DNA of 64,000 nt. It comes from an uncultured Arenicella sp. Lineage in GTDB: Bacteria > Pseudomonadota > Gammaproteobacteria > Arenicellales > Arenicellaceae. Each line of letters starts with the position of its first letter. Position 1 is the stretch's first letter. The stretch is from NCBI GenBank assembly GCA_938048185.1, contig CALIVT010000011.1, positions 42,882 through 106,881 of the forward strand, in the 5' to 3' direction. The notes below the pieces were generated by a model, which did no database searches, had not been told where the DNA came from, and was given only the letters and a program-made list of their open reading frames with translations. This document shows positions 1 to 11,233 of the stretch, piece after piece. A program made the translations under genes and the position numbers.

Positions 1-1420
1 CTCTAAAGGAATCCGCGAGCGAGAGCGAAAAACGCCACGCAGCGTTTGGGTCATAATGTAATTCTATTTTAGGTGACGCATGAGTAAAGCTGTCTTCTCG
101 GTCTGCTGGGCGGCTATAACGACACCCTCCAAAACCACATTCAGTACCATCATCGCGTGTTCGACCCGCCAAACTACGATTATCATAATCGTAATCAATG
201 CGCTCGAGTCTCGCACCTGCGCTTAAATGCCAACGTTCACTGATTGACCAATCCACGTGTGTGAACACGCCCAGTTGTTGCGCATCAACTTGGTAATCAT
301 AGTGCACGCCGGTTGGGATAGTCGCGATCAAAAAGGCGGAACCCTGTGTAGCTTCGGCTTGTGATTGCCGTAACTCGCTGTCGGTAAAATCAGCGTCAAA
401 ACCAATCGCTATGTCTAAGCGGTCGTTGAGCGCAAAGCGCAACGCTGATTGCCAGCCAAAACCACTTTGCGCGTTTTGCTCTAACGGATCACCGGGTAGA
501 AAATGAAGCAAAAAATCCATGTCGGTGTCACGCAAATACACCGCGCCATCGGCGCGTGTACCATTATCGAATTCACGCGATGCTTTAAGCCAAGCACGTA
601 GCGATTGTGTTTTTCGAAACGCATTCGGGTCAAGATTCTCACGTGCGAGCCGCGGGTCACGATAACTATCGAGTCCCACTATAAAGCCCGCAGTCTCTTG
701 ATCAAGATCGGTGTAGCTTGCGCCAACGTTTATCTGCCAGTCTCCCAAACCTGCGGCGTGCCGCCAGCTAAGCTTGCGTTGGGTATAACCGGCATCGTCG
801 CGATAGCCTCCGTCTTCGGTAATCGTGGCGTAAACCCGGCCGCCCTCGTAGGAGACTGCCGCCTGGCCGCGCACATAACTATTAGAGCCCGCTTCGATCG
901 CGAAATAATCGTCTCCTTGCGCGGGTAAGATCACATTAACGCTGCCGGTTAAGGCATTAGAACCGTAAAACGCGGAACTCGCCCCGCGCACAACTTCGAG
1001 CCGCTGTGCCGCTTCAAAATGCGTGTCAAACAGCTCGTTGACGTTACACGCCCCCGCGCCACGCACCGGAATAGTCTCTTCCATTATAAGCACGCTGCCA
1101 CATGCGCCAGCCCCGGTAAGTACCGCAGAACGTATACCAGGTAACGACTCTTGGCCACTGCCGCGCTGCAAGCTGACGCCCGGAACCCGACTTAAACTTT
1201 GTTGAATATGCACTGGCCGAACCCGCGCCAGTTCCTGAGCGTCAGCAACCGTAATATTGATTGATTGCTCATCAAGTGGCCGTTCAATACGAGAGCCGAT
1301 GACCGCGACTTCCTCTAATTCAACCGCAAATACATGGCTCGAAAATGCAGTGATACAGGCGCTCGCTATGAGCCCAGTGACAGGGGCGATAGACACGTAT
1401 CGCCCGATAAAATTGATCAT
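1..1420 (-). CDS. TonB-dependent receptor, 3' end runs off the window (absent from the ORF track)
   Basis: Hand translation from ATG at 1420: signal peptide MINFIGRYVSIAPVTGLIASACITAFSSHVFA, TonB-box-like VELEEVAVIGSR, plug motifs RVPGVSLQRG, GIRSAVLTGAGACGS and RLEVVRGASSAFYGSNALTGSVNVI. The frame was open in every segment I translated, down to base 2 (...HYDPNAAWRFSLSLADSFR). Confidence 0.9.
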   Translation of the reverse strand, partial: MINFIGRYVSIAPVTGLIASACITAFSSHVFAVELEEVAVIGSRIERPLDEQSINITVADAQELARVRPVHIQQSLSRVPGVSLQRGSGQESLPGIRSAVLTGAGACGSVLIMEETIPVRGAGACNVNELFDTHFEAAQRLEVVRGASSAFYGSNALTGSVNVILPAQGDDYFAIEAGSNSYVRGQAAVSYEGGRVYATITEDGGYRDDAGYTQRKLSWRHAAGLGDWQINVGASYTDLDQETAGFIVGLDSYRDPRLARENLDPNAFRKTQSLRAWLKASREFDNGTRADGAVYLRDTDMDFLLHFLPGDPLEQNAQSGFGWQSALRFALNDRLDIAIGFDADFTDSELRQSQAEATQGSAFLIATIPTGVHYDYQVDAQQLGVFTHVDWSISERWHLSAGARLERIDYDYDNRSLAGRTRDDGTECGFGGCRYSRPADREDSFTHASPKIELHYDPNAAWRFSLSLADSFR

Positions 1421-1492: not shown

Positions 1493-3028
1493 TCAACCTA
1501 CATTTGAATCCTCAAAACTGGCCTTACGCGCTTCCATATAGGCGATCAGTTTGGCGTCTATTTCCGCATCAAGTTCAGGCGCTTGGTAATCTGCTAGCAT
1601 CTTTTTGTACTGAGCATTGGCACGCGTTTGGGTGTCGGGGCTACCCGCTTCGACCCACGCTTCGTAGCTATTATTGTCGGACACCGTCGATGGGTAAAAT
1701 GCGGTCTTAAAGTTGCGCTGAGTGTGCTCACAACCCAAGAAATGCTGGCCCGGACCGACTTCACGCAACGCATCGAGCGCTTGACCGTTTTCGCTCATGT
1801 CCACGCCTTGCGCAGACACTCGCAACATGCCGGCCTGATCGGCGTCCATAATGAATTTTTCGTAGCCCATTGATAAGCCTCCCTCTAACCAACCTGCCGT
1901 GTGCAAGGCAAAATTAACGCCGGCATTAAGAGTTGCATTCAGTGTGTTTGCCGCCTCGTACCCGGCTTGAGCATCTGGTAGTTTGGACGACGTGAAACCA
2001 CCCCCACTGCGAAAAGGAACACCTAAACGGCGCGCTAAAGAGCCACCGATGTTCATTACTTGCGACGCCTCGGGCGTACCAAACGTGGGCGCACCAGATT
2101 GCATGGACATGGAACTTACAAAATTTCCGTAAATCATCGGCGCACCAGGACGCACCAATTGAATCAAAGACATACCGGCGAGGCCTTCGGCCAAGCTCTG
2201 AGCAGCGACACCTGCTGCCGACACGGGCGACATAGCACCGGCAACAATAAACGGGGTAACAATACAGGCTTGGTTATTACGCGCGTATACTTTCAGAGAC
2301 CCAACCATTGTGCCGTCAAATGCCATCGGCGAATTGGCATTAATTAAATTGATCATTACGCAATTTTGATCAACAAATTCGTCACCAAACACTATCTTAG
2401 CCATCGCGACTGAGTCTTCCGCACGCTCAGGCGCCGTCACCGACCCCATAAACGGCTTATCGGAATATTTAAGGTGGGCATAGACCATGTCGAAGTGGCG
2501 CTTATTCACCGGCAAATCGACCGGCTCACAGATAGTACCGCCCGAGTGATGCAAGTTGTCTGACATGTACGCCAGCTTCACAAAGTTGTTAAAATCTTCG
2601 ATGGTCGCGTAGCGACGCCCCCCGTCCAAGTCATAGACAAATGGCGGGCCATAGGCCGGCACTAACACCATATTATCGCCACCAATTTGCACGTTACGTT
2701 TGGGGTTTCGCGCGTGTTGGGTGAACTCTCGTTGTGCTGTCGCCTGAACTATATCGCGACACATACCGCGCGGAAACCGAATACGATCGCCGTCAATAGC
2801 CGCGCCCGCGTCACGGAAGATATCCAACGTTTCCTCATCGTCGGTAAAATCGATACCGATCTCTTCTAAAATAATTTCGGCGTTGTTTTCAATAATGCTC
2901 AGTGACGCGTCATCGAGCACCTCAAAGTAAGGGATCTTGCGTTGAATATAGGCAGGCGCGGTTGATTCCGCATTGGCTGCTTGCGCTGCTCGGCGGCTGC
3001 GACCGCCACCTCTTCGTTCTCTGGCCAT
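1493..3028 (-). CDS. MttB-family (trimethylamine methyltransferase superfamily) corrinoid methyltransferase, non-pyrrolysine
   Basis: 511 aa. MttB-like motifs RYATIEDFNNFVKLAY, HSGGTICEPVD, TPFIVAGAMSPVS, SGAPTFGTPE, KLPDAQAGYE, HTAGWLEGGL. No in-frame amber codon. Confidence 0.93.
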   Translation of the reverse strand: MARERRGGGRSRRAAQAANAESTAPAYIQRKIPYFEVLDDASLSIIENNAEIILEEIGIDFTDDEETLDIFRDAGAAIDGDRIRFPRGMCRDIVQATAQREFTQHARNPKRNVQIGGDNMVLVPAYGPPFVYDLDGGRRYATIEDFNNFVKLAYMSDNLHHSGGTICEPVDLPVNKRHFDMVYAHLKYSDKPFMGSVTAPERAEDSVAMAKIVFGDEFVDQNCVMINLINANSPMAFDGTMVGSLKVYARNNQACIVTPFIVAGAMSPVSAAGVAAQSLAEGLAGMSLIQLVRPGAPMIYGNFVSSMSMQSGAPTFGTPEASQVMNIGGSLARRLGVPFRSGGGFTSSKLPDAQAGYEAANTLNATLNAGVNFALHTAGWLEGGLSMGYEKFIMDADQAGMLRVSAQGVDMSENGQALDALREVGPGQHFLGCEHTQRNFKTAFYPSTVSDNNSYEAWVEAGSPDTQTRANAQYKKMLADYQAPELDAEIDAKLIAYMEARKASFEDSNVG

Positions 3029-3121
3029 GACAATGTCCTCTTTTTCTTCTATCGTTCTAAATTATCTAGCATGCTGCACGCGCAATTTTTTTTAACTATT
3101 TAGCGCGTATACGCTCTGCTT

Positions 3122-5125
3122 CTAAGATCGCCGTCGCCGACGATTTCTCTGTATTGATTGTGCCGCGATGGGCGACACCGAAAATTTCATACCGTCGACA
3201 AAGTAGTCTTGAAAATTCGGTTCGTTCGCGCTTTCAATTTTACGCACCAGCTTGACCGCCTCAATAATACGTTCGCGTTCGGTGATACTTAACAAAGCCT
3301 TGGTTGCACCAATGCCCGCGGCGTTTCCAACTGAGCTAATTTGGTCTTTCGTAGCGCTTGGAATAATATCGAGGTCAGCAACAAAGTCAGGGTCTAGATG
3401 CGCACCAAAGGCACCGGCCAACAGTACTTTATCAAACGCCTTGCAATCCAAATAATCCATCAATAATTGCACGCCCGCAGACAGCGCGGCTTTAGCAAGT
3501 TGAATAGACCGCACATCAGTTTGTTCGACATAAATTGAATTAGCACCCTGCTCTACCAGTAAAAAACGAACCGTATTACCATTACTATCAAAACGTTCTG
3601 GCGCGTTTGTTTGCACAAATAGACCGGTTTGGTCGATCAGGCCCGCTTTCGCTAACTCAACCATAACTTCGATAATACCCGAACCACAAATACCGATAAC
3701 GCGCGGCTGAGCTGCAGCAAAGCCATCTTGATCTGACCATGCATCGACGCCAATAACCTTGAAACGCACCTCGAATGTCTCAGGGTCTATTCGAATTCGC
3801 TCAATCGCGCCATGCGATGCGCGCACACCAGAGCTAATTTCAGCACCCTCAAAGGCTGGGCCGGTGGGCGACGAAGTGGCGTACACCACACCGTCTTTAG
3901 CCAACATGATTTCCGCGTTTGTTCCAATATCAACCAACAAGGTGGTTTGCGATTGCATGGTGTCGATTTCACTCAAATACGCTGCTGCTGTATCAGCGCC
4001 GACGTGACCAGCAATTAATGGTAAAAATGCCAATCGTGTGCTCGGAAATAGATCCAGGCCGATTTCCGCCGCCGTCATTTCTAACCACTCTCGGATCGCT
4101 AAGGTAAAGGGCGCCTGGCCTAACTCAACCGGTGAGATTCCGAAAAACAAATGATGCATGATCGGATTGCCGACTAGAACCACTTCCAACAATTTATCGT
4201 GTGTTAACGCTAATTGTTTGCAGGCTTCATGAAACATCTCGGTAAGCTTATTGCGTACCGCGTCGGTGAGTTTTTGCTCACCGCCTTTGTTCATCATTAC
4301 GTAGGAAACACGGCTCATCAAATCTTCGCCATACTGAATTTGCGGGTTCATGGCCGATGTTTCGTACAATAAATCGCCGCTGAGTAAGTCGTAAACGTAA
4401 ACGGCCAACGTTGTCGAGCCGATGTCTACCGCGGCGCCAACCACTCGTGTTTCACCTTGTGGGTACAGTGCTACAACGTGCGAGCTATCACGCACGACCA
4501 CACTTAATTTACCGCTAGTTTCATGCACCAAGGCATGCAAATTTGCGAGTAGCTTAGGGTGGACACTGGCATCAATAGACTGCTCGGCTAAGCGCTCAAT
4601 TAGGTTTTCAGTAACCGACGGGTTGGTGTCCATCGTGGCTTCTGCCAGCTCTACATCACATACCTGCAAGACTGGATTCAGGTCGAAATCGCGCGCGATG
4701 TTTTTCTTGCTGATGTAAGCCAAATTTTCTTGGCTGCGCTCGGGCACATCAATTAATACGTCGCCCAATACACGTGTGCGACAAGCAAGGCGCAAACCTT
4801 TGAACTTATCGTTACGCTGATACATGCGTTCTTCTAGATCCGTGACGGGCGACAAATTATCGGCCGACGATATCAAGCCATGTTTTGAGTGCGAGCCCTC
4901 TGATACGTCCACCCAACATTGACGACAATTGCCGTTGCCGCCGCATAATGAACGAATCGCGACACCGGTTGCCTGCGCGGTTTCCAGCAAGGTTGCGCCA
5001 AGTTCCGCCTCGGTCGACAAGCCGGATGGCGTAAAGACAACTCGTTTGGTTTCAGTAACCGGGTCGGCACACGGGTCAGTGCGCTGGCTCGCAGCTTGAT
5101 CAAGACTAGGGGCGGCGTCAGACAT
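3122..5125 (-). CDS. RamA/RACo-type ATP-dependent corrinoid reductive activase (2Fe-2S plus ASKHA/DUF4445)
   Basis: N-terminal 2Fe-2S motif CGGNGNCRQC...RLAC. ASKHA motifs AVDIGSTT, DIGTNAE, GPAFEGAEI, GICGSG, LAGAFG, VGNAAGIGA. Confidence 0.92.
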   Translation of the reverse strand: MSDAAPSLDQAASQRTDPCADPVTETKRVVFTPSGLSTEAELGATLLETAQATGVAIRSLCGGNGNCRQCWVDVSEGSHSKHGLISSADNLSPVTDLEERMYQRNDKFKGLRLACRTRVLGDVLIDVPERSQENLAYISKKNIARDFDLNPVLQVCDVELAEATMDTNPSVTENLIERLAEQSIDASVHPKLLANLHALVHETSGKLSVVVRDSSHVVALYPQGETRVVGAAVDIGSTTLAVYVYDLLSGDLLYETSAMNPQIQYGEDLMSRVSYVMMNKGGEQKLTDAVRNKLTEMFHEACKQLALTHDKLLEVVLVGNPIMHHLFFGISPVELGQAPFTLAIREWLEMTAAEIGLDLFPSTRLAFLPLIAGHVGADTAAAYLSEIDTMQSQTTLLVDIGTNAEIMLAKDGVVYATSSPTGPAFEGAEISSGVRASHGAIERIRIDPETFEVRFKVIGVDAWSDQDGFAAAQPRVIGICGSGIIEVMVELAKAGLIDQTGLFVQTNAPERFDSNGNTVRFLLVEQGANSIYVEQTDVRSIQLAKAALSAGVQLLMDYLDCKAFDKVLLAGAFGAHLDPDFVADLDIIPSATKDQISSVGNAAGIGATKALLSITERERIIEAVKLVRKIESANEPNFQDYFVDGMKFSVSPIAAQSIQRNRRRRRS

Positions 5126-5130
5126 TTGAA

Positions 5131-5535
5131 TTAATTATGCTCAATGGAGTCATCCCAACGCAGAAAACGAGTTTCATTTTGACTAATTTCATAATAGTCG
5201 CCTTTTTCACCAACAAATACATGACCACTAACTTCGAGCTGACTTGCGTCAGTCATACTGCCAGCAGTAATACTCAAGAATCGATTTTTATCATTGCGCC
5301 AAAATAGTTGCGAACCGCAGTCGGGGCAAAAACCATGACGCGAATTCTCAGAGACGTAATACCACTTAGGCTCACCACTGATCTTAATATCATCTAGGGC
5401 GACTTGTGCAGCGGCCATATAATGCCCGGTCATCTGTCGACATTGACGACAGTGGCAATACCATAGTGGCTTCGTCGCTTTCGACGTATACCCAATATTG
5501 CCACAACAGCAAGAACCCGAGATCGATTTTGACAT
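5131..5535 (-). CDS. GFA/CENP-V family zinc protein
   Basis: GSCCCG...CHCRQCR...GFCPDCGSQLF pattern. Start placed at ATG 5535 (MSKSISGSC) because the longer track ORF overlaps the upstream gene. Confidence 0.88.
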   Translation of the reverse strand: MSKSISGSCCCGNIGYTSKATKPLWYCHCRQCRQMTGHYMAAAQVALDDIKISGEPKWYYVSENSRHGFCPDCGSQLFWRNDKNRFLSITAGSMTDASQLEVSGHVFVGEKGDYYEISQNETRFLRWDDSIEHN

Positions 5536-5552
5536 AATCGTAGGCCCGATTT

Positions 5553-6452
5553 TTACGCTCGTCGACGTCGACTGCGACGCCGGCTTTCGCCCACCTCGCC
5601 CTCTTTGGCGGGCTCGCGATAATTCAAAATCCACTGCTGGCAATCAGGGTCATTAAACGCCAATACATCGGCGGCTCTGACAGCCTGCACTAACCCATCA
5701 TGCAAGGGGTTAACAATAGCTGAGGTCATTCCTGCGCCAATTGCCATCGGTAGAAAGGCATTGTTTATGCCGTGTCTGTTCGGTAGGCCGAAACTGATAT
5801 TTGACGCGCCACAGGTAGTGTTCACCTTAAGTTCTTCGCGCAGACGCTTACATAAAGCAAACACTTGATTGCCGGCGCCGCCGATGGCTCCAATTGGCAT
5901 CACTAACGGATCAATCACAACATCTTGGGCTTTGATACCATAGTCCGCTGCGTGCTCGACGATGCGCTTGGCGATTTCAAAACGCACATCAGGGTCTTCT
6001 GAGATACCGGTTTCGTCGTTCGAGATTCCGACCACCGCGGCATCGTATTTTTTAACCAAGGGCAGCACTCGTTCAAGTACCTCTACTTCGGCCGTAGTCG
6101 AGTTGACCAAGGCACGGCCTTGGTAGGCGGCCAAACCCGCTTCGAGGGCTTCGATAATTGATGAGTCGATGCACAAAGGCACATCAACCACTGCTTGTAC
6201 GCGACGAATAGCTTCCGCCAAAATCGCCGGCTCGTCGGCAAGTGGTATGCCTGCATTTACATCCAGCATTTGTGCACCCGCCGCAACCTGTGCGATGGCA
6301 TCGGATTCTACTCGGCTGTAATCGCCCTCTTTCATCTCAGCTGCGAGGATTTTGCGCCCAGTTGGGTTTATGCGCTCACCAATCATGGTAAAGGGGCTGC
6401 CAAAGCCGATGATAACTTCTTTATTGGGTGACGATAAAACGGTCTTAGTCAT
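5553..6452 (-). CDS. Methyltetrahydrofolate:corrinoid methyltransferase (stand-alone pterin-binding domain of MetH type)
   Basis: IGERINPTGRK, GAQMLDVNAG, PLCIDSS, ALVNS, IDPLVMPIGA, GASNISFGLP motifs. Confidence 0.92.
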   Translation of the reverse strand: MTKTVLSSPNKEVIIGFGSPFTMIGERINPTGRKILAAEMKEGDYSRVESDAIAQVAAGAQMLDVNAGIPLADEPAILAEAIRRVQAVVDVPLCIDSSIIEALEAGLAAYQGRALVNSTTAEVEVLERVLPLVKKYDAAVVGISNDETGISEDPDVRFEIAKRIVEHAADYGIKAQDVVIDPLVMPIGAIGGAGNQVFALCKRLREELKVNTTCGASNISFGLPNRHGINNAFLPMAIGAGMTSAIVNPLHDGLVQAVRAADVLAFNDPDCQQWILNYREPAKEGEVGESRRRSRRRRA

Positions 6453-6500
6453 GGCGTATCTCGCTTAATGTTATTCTACTATTTTGATTATTACGTTGAT

Positions 6501-7502
6501 CTAGTAACCGGGAGCCCAAACCTGCCGGCCATCTAGCACTCCAGATTGTCTGACCATTTCAGCAACATACTTTTCTTGACGGTATGCCATGACGTGTACG
6601 CCACTGATGCCCTCAATTTCTTTGCATTGCTGCATCAGTTCTACGCATATTTTTTGACCTTCGGCCTTTTGATTTTCAGCGCCTTCAAGCCGCTGAATCA
6701 GTTCATCCGGAATATGTACTCCGGGCACATTTGTGCGCAACCAACGTGCAGTATTCGCCGATGCCAAGGTACCCACGCCGGCCAAAATAAACGCTTTCTC
6801 GGTAAGGCCCATATCAACCGAACGCCGCATCATGTCGCGCAACACTGGCAAGTCAAAACAGTATTGGGTTTGAATAAACTCAGCACCTGCCGCAACTTTT
6901 TTTTGTAACTGACGCACCCGGTTTTCAATCGGCGGAACAAACGGGTTAATGGTAGAACCCGCAAATACCTTTGGCGCTTTGTCTAATTTACGACCACTCA
7001 GAAAACGCGACTCGTCACGCATGGTACGAATAGTAGTAAGCAAGGATATGCTGTCTAAATCAAAGACCGGCTTTGCCTCAGGGTGATCACCCGCCGACAC
7101 ATCATCACCACTCAAAGCCAGCACATTGCATACGCCCATTGCCGCGGCACCGAGTACGTCCCCTTGAATCGCGATGCGATTTTTATCGCGACACGAAATT
7201 TGTAAAATTGGCGAATAACCAACATGTGATAGTAAAGCGCAAACCGCGACGCTCGACATGTGGCAATTAGCCCCAGAACCATCAGTCGCGTTTATGGCAT
7301 CGCACACGCCATCAAATAGTGCGGCACGTTCATACACTTGATCGGCGTCGGCGGAATCTGGCGGCGCTATCTCGCTGGTCACCACAAAGTGGCCTTGACG
7401 CAATACACGCTCAAATCGACCTTGCGAGACGTGCCCGACGGCCTCGGGTAACGGACTGCCTAGATTATCAACCGGTGGATGTTGACTCGCTTGAGCGTTC
7501 AT
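6501..7502 (-). CDS. metF: Methylenetetrahydrofolate reductase
   Basis: VTSEIAPP, NATDGSGA, LQISCRDKNRIAIQ, LALSGDD, KVAAGAEFIQTQYCFD, GVHVMA motifs. Confidence 0.9.
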   Translation of the reverse strand: MNAQASQHPPVDNLGSPLPEAVGHVSQGRFERVLRQGHFVVTSEIAPPDSADADQVYERAALFDGVCDAINATDGSGANCHMSSVAVCALLSHVGYSPILQISCRDKNRIAIQGDVLGAAAMGVCNVLALSGDDVSAGDHPEAKPVFDLDSISLLTTIRTMRDESRFLSGRKLDKAPKVFAGSTINPFVPPIENRVRQLQKKVAAGAEFIQTQYCFDLPVLRDMMRRSVDMGLTEKAFILAGVGTLASANTARWLRTNVPGVHIPDELIQRLEGAENQKAEGQKICVELMQQCKEIEGISGVHVMAYRQEKYVAEMVRQSGVLDGRQVWAPGY

Positions 7503-7981
7503 ACTTCGGCCTTGCTAACGCTTTTGGTAGCACGATTAGTACCCCCCTCTTTCGCGAGTCGTATCCAAGCGCTGCTACCCTTATGTTGATGATTTGGCGC
7601 GAACTGAATAAGCTCAATTTCTTGGGCATGCTTCATTTTTTGAGAGCCGCTCCAAGCATCAACCCAAACACATTTCATTTCCGGTTTTACCTCACAATTA
7701 CCGTTCGCGCGCACACCACCGCAAGGGCCGTTACGAATCGTCTTAGGGCAATTCATCGGACACGTCATGCCGGTACTCGAAAGCACGCAATTGCCGCACA
7801 TTTTGCAATCAAACAACGCGCCTTTAACCTGTTTCTCAAACCATGTCACCGGGGCATCAAGCTTGCTACCAAAGAGTTTATTGAAAACCGTCAGCGTCGC
7901 TAAGATAATCGGGCTGCTCGCGTTATAGACCATTTCATAGGCCCGCGCATGACGTGTGGCAAAGCGTCTAAGCTGGTACAT
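7499..7981 (-). CDS. MTHFR C-terminal/MetV-like cysteine-rich small subunit
   Basis: FDCKMCGNCVLSSTGMTCPMNCPKTIRNGPCGGVRANGNCEVKPEMKCVW. ATGA overlap with metF. RBS AAGGTG precedes ATG 7981. Confidence 0.88.
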   Translation of the reverse strand: MYQLRRFATRHARAYEMVYNASSPIILATLTVFNKLFGSKLDAPVTWFEKQVKGALFDCKMCGNCVLSSTGMTCPMNCPKTIRNGPCGGVRANGNCEVKPEMKCVWVDAWSGSQKMKHAQEIELIQFAPNHQHKGSSAWIRLAKEGGTNRATKSVSKAEV

Positions 7982-8654
7982 GTTGCACCTTAATAGAGTC
8001 AAGCGCGGTTGCGGGGGCTAAACCATCGAAGCCAACGAATTGGTAGCGATACGCTAAACCCAACACTTCGGCGTGCCGTTTTGCGTCTTGTTGCAACTGG
8101 GGGTCCTCCGTTTGAGCCAGGTACACTAGCTGCGTGTAGTGCTTAAAATATTCATCTTTAAGTTCTGGATAGCGGTCAATGCCCAAGCCTTGAATCACAA
8201 AGCGGTCAAAAAACTTGACCAAAAAATCAGTTAAGAAAAAGCTGCCTAATTCTTTATCGACAATATCTTGATAGTTTTGAGCGCCAGCGAAAAATTCGTA
8301 ACAATGCGCGCCTGGCAAACGTTCGGCCTTGTGTTTTTCCAAAACCGTGTCTAGTGCGCCGGCCGTGCCACAGTCGCCGTAAGCAACAAACACACTTTGA
8401 TAATCAGCGGCGTGCTGATCAAGATATTTATCGACTTCGCCCGCAATCAACTGCGGTGTATTATGCAAATGAGCCGGCAAACACTGTAAATCTATGAACT
8501 CGTCGAGTTCGGGATTGTGTTTAATTAATTCGACTAGCTCATAAACCAGTGCGCCGCAGGCGAGCACTAAGCGCTTGGGCGCCGCACTCTTTGCAGTGAT
8601 ACCCGACGCCCCTGTAATCGAGTTGTGCGGTAGCGTTGCGGTTAACAATGGCAT
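7968..8654 (-). CDS. DUF1638 family protein (corrinoid reactivation accessory)
   Basis: LACGAL, CLPAHLHNTP, VAYGDCGT, HCYEFFAG, FFLTDFL motifs, plus its position between corrinoid protein and metF genes. Confidence 0.85.
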   Translation of the reverse strand: MPLLTATLPHNSITGASGITAKSAAPKRLVLACGALVYELVELIKHNPELDEFIDLQCLPAHLHNTPQLIAGEVDKYLDQHAADYQSVFVAYGDCGTAGALDTVLEKHKAERLPGAHCYEFFAGAQNYQDIVDKELGSFFLTDFLVKFFDRFVIQGLGIDRYPELKDEYFKHYTQLVYLAQTEDPQLQQDAKRHAEVLGLAYRYQFVGFDGLAPATALDSIKVQHVPA

Positions 8655-8681
8655 AGCGACTCGATCCGATTTACAAAGCCG

Positions 8682-9377
8682 CTAAGCGGCTTGAACGCTC
8701 TTCGCGTAGGTCTGTGCCATTTCGGCGCTGCGGGCAGCGTCGCGGCCGTAGGCATCGGCACCAATTGCATCTGCGAACTCTTGGTTAAGCGGCGCGCCGC
8801 CACACATCACATGAAAGTCATTACGCATACCGCGCTTATCTAACTCTTCAATAACAACGCCCATATAAGGCATGGTGGTTGTTAACAGTGCTGACATTCC
8901 CATGATGACGGGTTTGTGTTCGTCGATCGCTTCAAGGTAGTTCTCAACCGGGTTATTAATACCCAGGTCTATCACCTCAAACCCCGCACCTTCGAGCATC
9001 ATGCCGACCAAGTTCTTACCAATATCATGGATATCGCCTTTGACCGTGCCGATTACAAACTTGCCCAATGACAGGTCGACTGAGCTATTCGCCAAAATAG
9101 GTCTTAGCAACCCCATACCCTGTTTCATGGCGCCAGCGCACTTAAGCACCTCGGGCACGAACAAAATACCATCACGAAAGTCTTCACCAACGATTTTCAT
9201 GCCACCGACTAGCGCATCGCCTAGAATGTCGTTTGCATCCCAATCCCGACCCAGCAATATCTCTACGCCTTCAAATACTTCGTCGTTTAAGCCATCGTAA
9301 AGGTCGTCTTGAATTTGTTCGACAAGTTCTTTATCGTCCAAATCAGCCAATTCAAAATCGTCTTCTTGTTCACTCAT
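8682..9377 (-). CDS. Stand-alone corrinoid (B12-binding) protein
   Basis: Cap domain GMKIVGEDFRDGILFVPEVL, B12 motif GTVKGDIHDIGKNLV, MSALLTTTM, CGGAP. Confidence 0.94.
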   Translation of the reverse strand: MSEQEDDFELADLDDKELVEQIQDDLYDGLNDEVFEGVEILLGRDWDANDILGDALVGGMKIVGEDFRDGILFVPEVLKCAGAMKQGMGLLRPILANSSVDLSLGKFVIGTVKGDIHDIGKNLVGMMLEGAGFEVIDLGINNPVENYLEAIDEHKPVIMGMSALLTTTMPYMGVVIEELDKRGMRNDFHVMCGGAPLNQEFADAIGADAYGRDAARSAEMAQTYAKSVQAA

Positions 9378-9527
9378 ATTTCGTGCCTAGCCCCAGATAT
9401 AAACCCAAATAACCGCTTGAATAACTGCGCAACCTCACCGGCGTAAGGTTTTGCTCTATTTACTCGATTGTGTGTTATAGATCGCCGACTCAGTGTCCAG
9501 ATTGCGACATTTACTTACACAGTCAAA

Positions 9528-10112
9528 TCAATTTTCACCATATCTGGCACGCTGTTCGGCATCCAGTGCCTTAGGGACGGCAAACACGCGCTGAAGCAGC
9601 GGTTTAAAAAACGCCAGGGGCTCAGAGTCATACTCTGGGTCAAAGCAGTTTTGATCGTATTCATGGCAGAATTTGACTGCGCTGTCGTAGTATCGGTGAT
9701 CCTTAAATTGATCCCGTGCATTGCGATCTCCACCGCAATGGTGCGCGTAGTAATACATCTGAAAAAGGCCGTGGTGTTTTATAACCCAATACACCTCGTC
9801 ACTGACGAAGGGTCGGAGTACCGCGGCGGCCATCTCGCTGTGTGAATACGTGGCCAGCTCATCGCCAATGTCATGCAATAGTGCTGCGGCGACCCATTCA
9901 TCGGACTCGCCCGCTCGGTGAGCACGCGTAGCCGCCTGCAAGACATGCTCTAAACGCGATATTTTGTAGCCCGATAGCGTTTCCTCTAGTGCCGCGAGCG
10001 CGGTCAATAAGCGCTGCGGAAGATCGAGCTTGTACTGGTCTTCGAGTTGGTCAAGGTAAGCGTAATCCTCAGCCGTGCCATCCTGCATTTTTGTAAAGCT
10101 GACTTTTTTCAT
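9528..10112 (-). CDS. HD-domain metalloprotein, probable diiron oxygenase (MIOX/PhnZ/TmpB superfamily)
   Basis: Ligand pattern LEH...LLHDIGD...YSHS...KHHG...YDQNCFDP. ATGA overlap with the upstream dioxygenase. Confidence 0.8.
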   Translation of the reverse strand: MKKVSFTKMQDGTAEDYAYLDQLEDQYKLDLPQRLLTALAALEETLSGYKISRLEHVLQAATRAHRAGESDEWVAAALLHDIGDELATYSHSEMAAAVLRPFVSDEVYWVIKHHGLFQMYYYAHHCGGDRNARDQFKDHRYYDSAVKFCHEYDQNCFDPEYDSEPLAFFKPLLQRVFAVPKALDAEQRARYGEN

Positions 10113-11233
10113 TTTTTCATTAGCATGCGTAACCGACTCAAGACATCATCATAGTCCATATATGAGAGTTGCAAGTGGCGACCACCGCTATCGGCGTCAT
10201 AGGCATTGCGACCGTGCATAACACGCAAATTGTTGGTCGCCATAATATCGCCGGTGTTGAGACGAAACTGCACCTTATTCTCGGGCGCTTCAACCAACGT
10301 ACCCAGTTTGCGATAGGCTCGGTAAAATGCATCCATTTGCTCAGGCGCAATGTTCGCTGGCTGCGCCAGTTGGTTTGAAAAGCGAAAGACTTTCAAGTTG
10401 CCATTAACATCGAGTGTGAGCAGTGGGTTACTGTTAATAATGTCACCGCGATCGCTAAACATGCGGAACCGAACCGGTGTGCTCGATAGTATCTTGAACG
10501 CGTCGGGGTCTCGCTCTTGCAATTGTCGAACCACCATCGCGCCATCGACTGCAGTGCTCTCGCCACCCACGCTATCATTTTGCAAAAAATGAAACATCTG
10601 TACGCCGGGCGGATTATTGTAGTTTGGCATGTCAGTATGCGGCTTTAACTCTAGGGTAGTGGAAGCAACGTTATACGCATTGTACTCACCGGGTGTCGCA
10701 CGCACGTTGTGCAAACGGTCGTAGATGGTCTCGCGTACACAGCCAACATGCTCAGCAAAGCGTTCAATTTCTCCTTCGTTACTCGGCGCGCCACGAATGA
10801 TGGTCAAGCCATAGTCGCGTATCGACTCACACCATGCGCGCAAGGCAGCGTCGCTCTGATACAGCTCACGGTACTGAAAGGTGGGAATACTGCTCTCGAA
10901 TTCTCTACCCCATACTCTCGGCATGAAACCCGATGTCGCGGGGTCGTCTGTAAACGAACCCTGACTGTAATCATGCTGGCTCAACCAGCTTAAGTCGTAA
11001 ACGCTCACATGGTTGGATTGATTCCACCGCACTTTAAGTTTTTGTTCATCAAGCGATGCAGAGCTCGCGGCGATATCAAGTGGAATATCGGCACTGACTA
11101 GAATACGTTCCTTGGTATCGGAGTGGCAGCACTCGTTGCAGTTGCAATTGTCACGCAACCAGACGTAATGAAACTCAGCCTCAGGATTAGAGTCAAGAGG
11201 AAGCTGCAAAGTCGATGCATTCAAATTAACCAT
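10109..11233 (-). CDS. Gamma-butyrobetaine/trimethyllysine hydroxylase-like Fe(II)/2OG dioxygenase (TauD family)
   Basis: N-terminal WLRDNCNCNEC...HVSVY Zn-site pattern (C30, C32, C35, H75), HTD iron motif (LKPHTDMPNY), distal NLRVMHGRNAY. Confidence 0.9.
   Translation of the reverse strand: MVNLNASTLQLPLDSNPEAEFHYVWLRDNCNCNECCHSDTKERILVSADIPLDIAASSASLDEQKLKVRWNQSNHVSVYDLSWLSQHDYSQGSFTDDPATSGFMPRVWGREFESSIPTFQYRELYQSDAALRAWCESIRDYGLTIIRGAPSNEGEIERFAEHVGCVRETIYDRLHNVRATPGEYNAYNVASTTLELKPHTDMPNYNNPPGVQMFHFLQNDSVGGESTAVDGAMVVRQLQERDPDAFKILSSTPVRFRMFSDRGDIINSNPLLTLDVNGNLKVFRFSNQLAQPANIAPEQMDAFYRAYRKLGTLVEAPENKVQFRLNTGDIMATNNLRVMHGRNAYDADSGGRHLQLSYMDYDDVLSRLRMLMKK

Follow-up and report, generated by a model that had tools for sequence, protein, structure and literature searches.

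How do three or four enzymes share one free corrinoid protein in the presence of oxygen? The question is raised by a stretch of DNA from an uncultured Arenicella sp. (contig CALIVT010000011.1; the whole 64,000 nucleotides analyzed are hereafter the window), which encodes on its minus strand a stand-alone corrinoid protein, MtgC, and three enzymes that act on it: an MttB-superfamily methyltransferase resembling MtgB, a pterin-binding methyltransferase resembling MtgD, and a reductive activase of the RamA/RACo type. A preliminary description made from the sequence had noted Arg-rich tails on the three enzymes and a very acidic N-terminus on MtgC, and had proposed that the tails constitute a shared electrostatic docking code. 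We find that the tails are conserved across phyla and restricted to the partners of MtgC, that they co-occur with an acidic N-terminal extension of MtgC, and that they are under selection at the protein level. Judging from the sequences, we lean toward the explanation that the tails would be a shared electrostatic docking address for the acidic N-terminal and cap region of MtgC, common to all of its visitors. The gene system has already been published; what appears to be new is a convergent, terminal, portable RG-rich tag shared by all visitors of a B12 carrier.

Tails on the partners of MtgC

The four sequence statements of the preliminary description, on the start of MttB, the ends of RamA and MtgD, and the acidity of MtgC, are all exact (Table 2). 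Its further statement that the other cluster proteins lack such tails was borne out by a scan of all open reading frames (ORFs) of at least 100 amino acids (aa) in the window for at least 5 Arg among the final 12 or the initial 15 residues, in which MttB, RamA, and MtgD were the only real genes recovered, the other match being an antisense ORF inside metF2 (7319-7903, +). The chance of finding tails on 3/3 partners and on 0/~50 other genes is roughly 1/C(54,3) = 4e-5.

Conservation was assessed in 80 genome loci centered on MtgC homologs of 62-75% identity, taken from Alpha-, Beta-, and Gammaproteobacteria, Actinobacteria (Planktophila, Acidimicrobiia, Thermoleophilia, Gaiellaceae), and Chloroflexi (Limnocylindria). 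C-terminal tails were scored in a 12-aa window within the last 30 residues at cut-offs of at least 4 and at least 5 Arg, MttB tails were scored as at least 4 Arg in a 15-aa window on the N-terminal side of the conserved YIxR motif, and the counts cover complete genes only (Table 1). Every MtgC in these loci kept the acidic N-terminal motif, which reads M-S-[DE]n-Φ-x-L-x-x-L-x-D-[DE]-[DE]-L-V-x-Q-M-x-DDLY[DN]G and after whose end we refer to the DDLYDG clade, and the test of co-variation suggested in the preliminary description had a favorable outcome, in that the acidic MtgC N-terminus and Arg-tailed partners always appeared together. The sole tail-less MtgD (1/42) is a truncated ORF. Pooled, the non-partners MetF2, DUF1638, DUF5981, and GFA reached the looser cut-off in 8/113 cases, and many of the other ORFs with Arg-rich ends are spurious calls in high-GC genomes. 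Candidates for further members of the tailed set were rejected, as the other tailed proteins in the loci were either such spurious ORFs or unrelated singletons (CobT, AspRS). The CobT is a cobaltochelatase subunit near mtgC (L026:5143-7017, +) ending ..ERGHPRRRRAA, a cobalamin-pathway singleton whose tail is possibly a coincidence.

Table 1. Arg-rich ends among complete genes of the 80 loci
Protein	At least 4 Arg	At least 5 Arg
RamA (C-terminus)	39/39	37/39
MtgD (C-terminus)	41/42	37/42
Close MttB (N-terminus)	26/26	
MtgC	0/75	0/75
MetF2	1/25	0/25
DUF1638	4/65	1/65
DUF5981	3/18	0/18
GFA	0/5	0/5
Other ORFs	106/772 (14%)	42/772 (5%)

Two advance predictions of the docking-tag hypothesis, one concerning MtgE and the other divergent MttB proteins, both held. 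MtgE (PF02574, S-methyl_trans), the fourth partner of MtgC, bears an Arg-rich tail in 15/15 complete copies in the loci, where the tail follows a C-terminal extension of ~40 residues (e.g., ..RERRGRRRA and ..RRGRRGRRRA). Two divergent MttB paralogs that adjoin mtgC (L002:492-2018 and L038:7648-9174) have their start at Pfam position 29-32 and no N-terminal tail, and each instead has a C-terminal extension of ~40 residues ending ..ASRRRRTARSVAL and ..SGRRQNRRRGRSGL, respectively, from which we conclude that the tail is modular and independent of position. As read from these sequences, the tail has been gained by at least four unrelated folds and at either terminus. In one locus (L043:7919-13469), two further MttB paralog classes, scoring 354-366 bits against the window MttB, adjoin a single mtgC and have Arg-rich N-termini, and several donor-side enzymes probably share one MtgC hub. 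A divergent member of the DDLYDG clade (P0150, 56% identical) has as its neighbors a tailed RACo and a tailed, MtgE-like S-methyl_trans protein.

The tails are composed of 43.5% Arg, 20% Gly, and 11.5% Ala, with an R:K ratio of 743:21 against about 2:1 in the protein bodies. Each tail uses ~3 different Arg codons in proportions like those of the rest of the gene, and tail length and residue order differ between orthologs; this mixture of codons and variability of order place selection on amino-acid composition at the protein level. An explanation of the tail codons at the DNA or RNA level was rejected, given that the mixed Arg codons follow the usage in the body and that there are no Rfam or tRNA matches. 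At ~10-15 residues and a charge of +5 to +8, the tails are complementary to the acidic MtgC, and the bodies that carry them are anionic (MttB -22, RamA -34, MtgD -13). A twin-arginine (Tat) signal on the MttB N-terminus was likewise considered and rejected: RRGGGRSRRAAQAANAESTAP has no hydrophobic core, and like tails are C-terminal in RamA, MtgD, MtgE, and the two divergent MttB paralogs.

Homologs outside the tailed clade

The boundary of the clade was sought by an exhaustive search of 50%-identity representatives. All representatives at least 53% identical with a complete N-terminus have DDLYDG and the acidic extension; unscorable were fragments and a few ORFs called wrongly or out of frame. 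The next-closest corrinoid proteins, at most 50% identical, lack both features, are 210-218 aa long, start ~15 residues later, and have an ordinary cap helix. The corrinoid proteins of this sister clade (Anaerolineales and Desulfobacterales, 50-54% identical) have a net charge of -6 to -14 versus -27 for the window MtgC, a difference that lies almost wholly in the first 39 residues.

Neighborhoods of this sister clade were read from long contigs of metagenome-assembled genomes (MAGs) labelled Anaerolineales, Desulfobacterales, and Chloroflexi; the contexts of P0176, P0181, and P0197 are contigs of only 1-1.4 kb, and the long Anaerolineales and Desulfobacterales contigs were used in their place. 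The enzyme repertoire equals that of the tailed clade, with three to five MttB paralogs, Pterin_bind, two corrinoid proteins, DUF1638, and RACo, and no Arg tail was found on the MttB, Pterin_bind, or RACo neighbors in the sister-clade contigs. The pterin-binding protein ends ..AYRKRKADDEG and RACo has an acidic end, ..FLDDEQGS; the short P0176 contig also holds a pterin-binding C-terminus without a tail. Among anaerobe homologs in the PDB, the tail-less D. hafniense MtgB starts opposite residue ~26-32 of the query, MeTr chains stop at residue 275-280, and corrinoid proteins start at 19-20. We take the tailed clade to be aerobic or facultative and the sister clade to be anaerobic, the physiology of the lineages being assumed from the MAG names, and an aerobic tailed clade agrees with the O2-dependent TauD-family gene in the window block. 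On that assumption, the comparison of aerobes with anaerobes suggested in the preliminary description comes out in its favor, in that both the sister clade of anaerobe lineages and the anaerobe PDB homologs are without extension and without tails.

The sister-clade loci have features of their own. In each of L086-L091 the corrinoid proteins number two and the MttB paralogs three to five; in L086-L090 (e.g., L086:13068-19349), RACo lies between two hydantoinase/oxoprolinase-like genes with a GntR regulator directly upstream, and L091 has one hydantoinase-like gene only and no RACo in the stretch covered.

Structure of the MtgC N-terminus

Residues 1-18 of MtgC form an extension that anaerobe corrinoid proteins lack, and in an alignment of 31 sequences L10, L13, L18, Q21, and DDLYDG are invariant. 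We define the DDLYDG clade by ~15 N-terminal residues more than in anaerobe corrinoid proteins, by the motif acidic-Φ-x-L-x-x-L-x-D-[DE]-[DE]-L-x-x-Q-x-x-DDLY[DN]G, and by a net charge of about -11 to -17 in the first 40 residues, and the window MtgC falls within this definition. Its fold matches MttC, 4jgi, and MtaC in Foldseek over ~207-217 aligned columns, and the extension has no counterpart there. The AlphaFold model has an overall predicted local distance difference test (pLDDT) score of 85, and residues 1-6, at pLDDT < 50, are predicted to be disordered. On the strength of this prediction, the acidic region would comprise a short floppy tip (~7-9 residues) followed by an acidic first cap helix, which suggests that the N-terminus presents an acidic cap surface and a short tip instead of an extended polyanionic tail. 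Natural fusions of MtgC were sought as cases of tail loss and rejected, the over-long representatives being only over-extended ORF calls.

Genomic context

By the families of its proteins, the cluster (Table 2) is an aerobic-type MtgBCD/RamA corrinoid methyl-transfer system of the split-MetH type. MtgC combines PF02607 and PF02310, with the DxHxxG motif in GDIHDIGKN (residues 114-122). It is 74-92% identical to its 120 closest homologs, drawn from metagenomes and genomes, the named ones of which are Alpha- and Gammaproteobacteria, and it belongs to the same clade as the MtgC of the published system, with 62-92% identity to roseobacter, SAR116, and gammaproteobacterial homologs. The MttB ORF is uninterrupted over 511 aa, with no in-frame amber (pyrrolysine) codon, and scores below the cut-off of the Pyl-type model TIGR02369; its strongest match is PDB 4yyc (704 bits; residues 5-508 aligned). 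MtgD scores 363 bits against NCBIfam PRK07535 (cut-off 259) and has MeTr 2yck/1f6y as its PDB homologs, and RamA matches RACo (PDB 3zyy) at 243 bits.

Table 2. Features of the gene block and its surroundings (window coordinates)
Feature	Coordinates	Strand	Evidence and remarks
Gene block	1493-11233	-	ORF scan and Pfam
GBBH-like TauD-family dioxygenase	11233..10109	-	Pfam; context, upstream of mtgC
HD-domain protein	10112..9528	-	Pfam; context, upstream of mtgC
MtgC, stand-alone corrinoid protein, 231 aa, net -27	8682..9377	-	Pfam B12-binding_2 cap and B12-binding, PDB, AlphaFold, Foldseek
MtgC acidic N-terminal 39 residues	9261..9377	-	begins MSEQEDDFELADLDDKELVEQIQDDLYDGLNDEVFEGVE; 17 Asp/Glu, 1 Lys, net -16
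DUF1638 protein	7968..8654	-	PF07796; adjoins mtgC; no tail
DUF5981 (MTHFR C-terminal-like)	7499..8002	-	Pfam; no tail
MetF2 (methylene-H4folate reductase paralog)	6501..7502	-	Pfam MTHFR; no tail
MtgD-like MT2, pterin-binding methyl-H4folate:corrinoid methyltransferase, 299 aa	5553..6452	-	Pfam Pterin_bind PF00809
MtgD C-terminal Arg tail	5556..5588	-	end ESRRRSRRRRA
GFA-family protein	5131..5535	-	Pfam GFA; start probably ATG 5535; no tail
RamA/RACo-type reductive activase, 667 aa	3122..5125	-	Pfam Fer2 and RACo linker/middle/ASKHA (RACo_C_ter)
RamA C-terminal Arg tail	3125..3151	-	end QRNRRRRRS
MtgB-like MT1, MttB-superfamily (non-pyrrolysine) methyltransferase, 511 aa	1493..3028	-	Pfam MTTB PF06253, 749 bits
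MttB N-terminal Arg/Gly-rich tail	2990..3028	-	MttB begins MARERRGGGRSRR
TonB-dependent receptor	1..1420	-	context; runs off window start; 73 nt downstream of mttB stop

The residues that bind glycine betaine in D. hafniense MtgB are Y97, R312, H348, and F356 (PMC13080624). In our alignment Y126, R340, and H376 of the window MttB occupy three of these conserved positions, and the position of F356 is Gly384, with Trp380 close by, as in 4yyc; with three of the four residues kept, the substrate is probably a carboxylated quaternary amine. No S-methyl_trans homolog that could represent mtgE was found within the window by tblastn. In R. pomeroyi the genes of the system are scattered (PMC12478193), and MtgE may therefore sit elsewhere in this genome.

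The ATG of MttB is preceded at 8 nt by a good Shine-Dalgarno sequence, AGAGGA, and the MtgC start agrees with the M-S-[DE] start of 120 homologs. The mechanically called GFA ORF (5643..5131) begins at TTG and overlaps the codons of the MtgD tail in another frame (5536-5643), and its apparent Arg-rich N-terminus, RARQRGRGGRK, is an artifact of this over-extension; the GFA domain is matched by Pfam only from residue 41 of the long ORF onward, the ATG at 5535 reads MSKSISGS, and the latter is probably the true start. The overlap between DUF1638 and DUF5981 measures 35 nt and that between DUF5981 and metF2 4 nt, a tightness which suggests that the three are translationally coupled. The O2-dependent GBBH-like dioxygenase and the HD protein lie directly upstream of mtgC on the same strand, and their presence there hints at substrates of the carnitine or gamma-butyrobetaine type and at an aerobic lifestyle. 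The TonB-dependent receptor most resembles BtuB/TonB-B12 in NCBIfam, at only 63 bits versus a cut-off of ~600, and may take up corrinoids for the B12-dependent cluster. Rfam gave no sign of a cobalamin riboswitch, and the window has no Rfam or tRNA match of any kind.

Weighing of the explanations

MtgC is a small, very acidic B12-carrier hub that its partners visit in turn: MttB/MtgB on the methyl-donor side, MtgD to pass the methyl group to tetrahydrofolate (H4folate), RamA to re-reduce Co(II) at the expense of ATP, and, in many genomes, MtgE (homocysteine) as a further visitor. If the tails serve as a docking address, the terminal, probably disordered Arg/Gly-rich tail of each visitor would address the acidic tip and the first cap helix that ends in DDLYDG. 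Since the hub (-27) and the enzyme bodies (-13 to -34) are both anionic, the tails would overcome their mutual repulsion, and they may speed encounter by electrostatic steering or as a tether and allow competing partners to displace one another on MtgC. As the target sits on the cap that must move off cobalamin, the tails would hold the cap and might, speculatively, help to uncap the cofactor. We infer from the sequences both the physical binding of tail to N-terminus and its kinetic role. The docking code of the preliminary description is, on the evidence of co-variation, of MtgE, and of the tail-less sister clade, the best reading of the tails; to be refined is the acidic region of the partner, most of which the AlphaFold model renders as a folded cap helix.

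Several points weigh against this explanation. MtgC residues 11-40 are predicted to be ordered and helical (AlphaFold, pLDDT ~95), and part of the extension may have a structural role, to judge from the conserved L10 and L13; a fully disordered polyelectrolyte complex of the histone H1-prothymosin-alpha type does not fit a model in which these residues are helical. The charge of the MtgC N-terminus is only weakly related to tail charge across loci (rho 0.31 and 0.32, p ~0.05, uncorrected for phylogeny), and we place no weight on this correlation. The acidic extension arose once, and the co-occurrence is for this reason largely one evolutionary event followed by co-inheritance and not many independent events, the independent gains lying on the partner side only. 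Finally, Arg/Gly-rich tails are classic nucleic-acid binders.

In the foremost rival, the ligand of the tails is a different polyanion (RNA/DNA, polyphosphate, or anionic membrane lipids) that would co-localize the pathway enzymes in a cluster or condensate, the acidity of the MtgC N-terminus being a separate adaptation. A composition of 44% R and 20% G does resemble RNA-binding RGG tails, and the tail is common to all of the pathway enzymes. MtgC itself, tail-less and extremely acidic, would nevertheless be excluded from such a cluster unless it bound the tails, and the tails are confined to proteins that contact MtgC and are rare on the co-operonic MetF2, DUF5981, DUF1638, and GFA. With the strict co-occurrence of tails and the acidic MtgC clade added to these, we regard a different polyanion as an unlikely target.

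Still less probable to us is that a common third factor reads the tails, be it DUF1638, a chaperone for assembly or for loading of the cofactor, or a protease through which partner levels are co-regulated. DUF1638 is the obvious candidate, as it has no known function, is genetically required, and always adjoins mtgC (PMC5764234), but it is equally present in the tail-less sister clade with a similar net charge (-11 vs -12), and no clade-specific third protein recurs in the loci. We give about the same small credence to a role within each enzyme, such as charge compensation, solubility or folding, or oligomer stability, inherited with the clade. The strongly anionic enzyme bodies would make such compensation intelligible; against it, the equally acidic non-partners DUF1638 (-12), HD (-11), and GBBH-like (-12) are without tails, the sister-clade enzymes, no less acidic at -8 to -27, are likewise without tails, and the four unrelated folds gained theirs at either terminus. 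That the tails are neutral by-products of GC-rich read-through or mis-called ends is effectively refuted by the conservation statistics, for although high-GC genomes do yield spurious Arg/Gly/Ala-rich ends and ~5% of other ORFs in the loci reach at least 5 Arg, tails also occur in genomes of ~50% GC, the window included, ~97-100% of partners across phyla keep them despite turnover of the tail sequence, R:K is biased 35:1, and the Arg codons are mixed.

A broader form of the docking-address explanation is possible, and we hold it only tentatively: the tail could be a portable hub address by which any enzyme, at either terminus, plugs into the MtgC cap, in a dynamic and competitive polyelectrolyte contact that would permit rapid hand-over at low protein concentrations and uncapping by partners only, limiting exposure of Co(I) and methyl-Co to O2, as a non-covalent equivalent of the linker choreography of MetH. 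A metabolon or condensate formed by the tails, or a shielding of Co(I) from O2 by them, is speculative. The conserved pair of acidic cap extension and RG-rich tails offers a mutable handle, with predictions on binding kinetics, salt dependence, and the phenotypes of Ruegeria and Phaeobacter, and the tail provides a simple sequence rule that would predict which MttB paralogs or other methyltransferases use MtgC. If the docking address is real, the tail could also be used as a tag for assembling synthetic cobamide (B12) methyltransferase cascades.

Relation to known systems

Small, very acidic carriers or hubs that many enzymes recognize through charge include acyl carrier protein and the acidic C-terminal tip of SSB. 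To our knowledge, the basic element of their partners is a structured patch or pocket, whereas here it is a convergent terminal Arg/Gly-rich tail at either end.

The closest relatives of the window system are MtgBCD/RamA and the split methionine synthase (Mausz et al. 2025, PMC12478193; Price et al. 2018, PMC5764234), which comprise the same families MtgC, MtgB, MtgD, RamA-like activase, DUF1638, and MetF2; by comparison, the window adds a GFA gene and the GBBH-like dioxygenase and is without mtgE. Mausz et al. (2025, PMC12478193) report MtgBCD/split MetH to be a major route by which abundant marine bacteria demethylate glycine betaine and synthesize methionine. In R. pomeroyi, MtgC and MtgD are required for both processes, MtgB is the donor-side enzyme of the MttB family, and MtgE binds homocysteine (PMC12478193). 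RamA and DUF1638 have been linked to reactivation (PMC12478193; PMC5764234). Arg tails and the acidic extension go unmentioned in PMC12478193, PMC5764234, PMC13080624, and a 2025 bioRxiv follow-up, and a literature search, with subscription-only papers outside its coverage, returned no paper pairing "corrinoid protein" with "arginine-rich" and found the tails nowhere described, in keeping with the impression of novelty voiced in the preliminary description.

In fused MetH the same modules (Hcy, folate, cap and B12, reactivation) visit the cofactor in turn, joined by covalent linkers, whereas here they are separate proteins, and the tails may substitute for those linkers. The anaerobic systems, namely D. 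hafniense MtgABC, Methanosarcina MttBC/RamA, and Moorella/Carboxydothermus MeTr-CFeSP-RACo, have the same folds and the same logic of three visitors (MT1, MT2, and activase) and, unlike the window system, neither the acidic N-terminal extension nor Arg tails. MttB-MttC docking depends on the corrinoid and on a dimerization loop (PMC9842639). The nearest precedent is MtaC/MtaB (PDB 2I2X; PMC9842639), in which an extra N-terminal domain of MtaC docks into MtaB, so that there too an N-terminal addition to the corrinoid protein stabilizes the methyltransferase complex. The MtaC addition is a folded extra domain that serves one partner, whereas that of MtgC is a short acidic extension apparently matched by the tails of four partner families.

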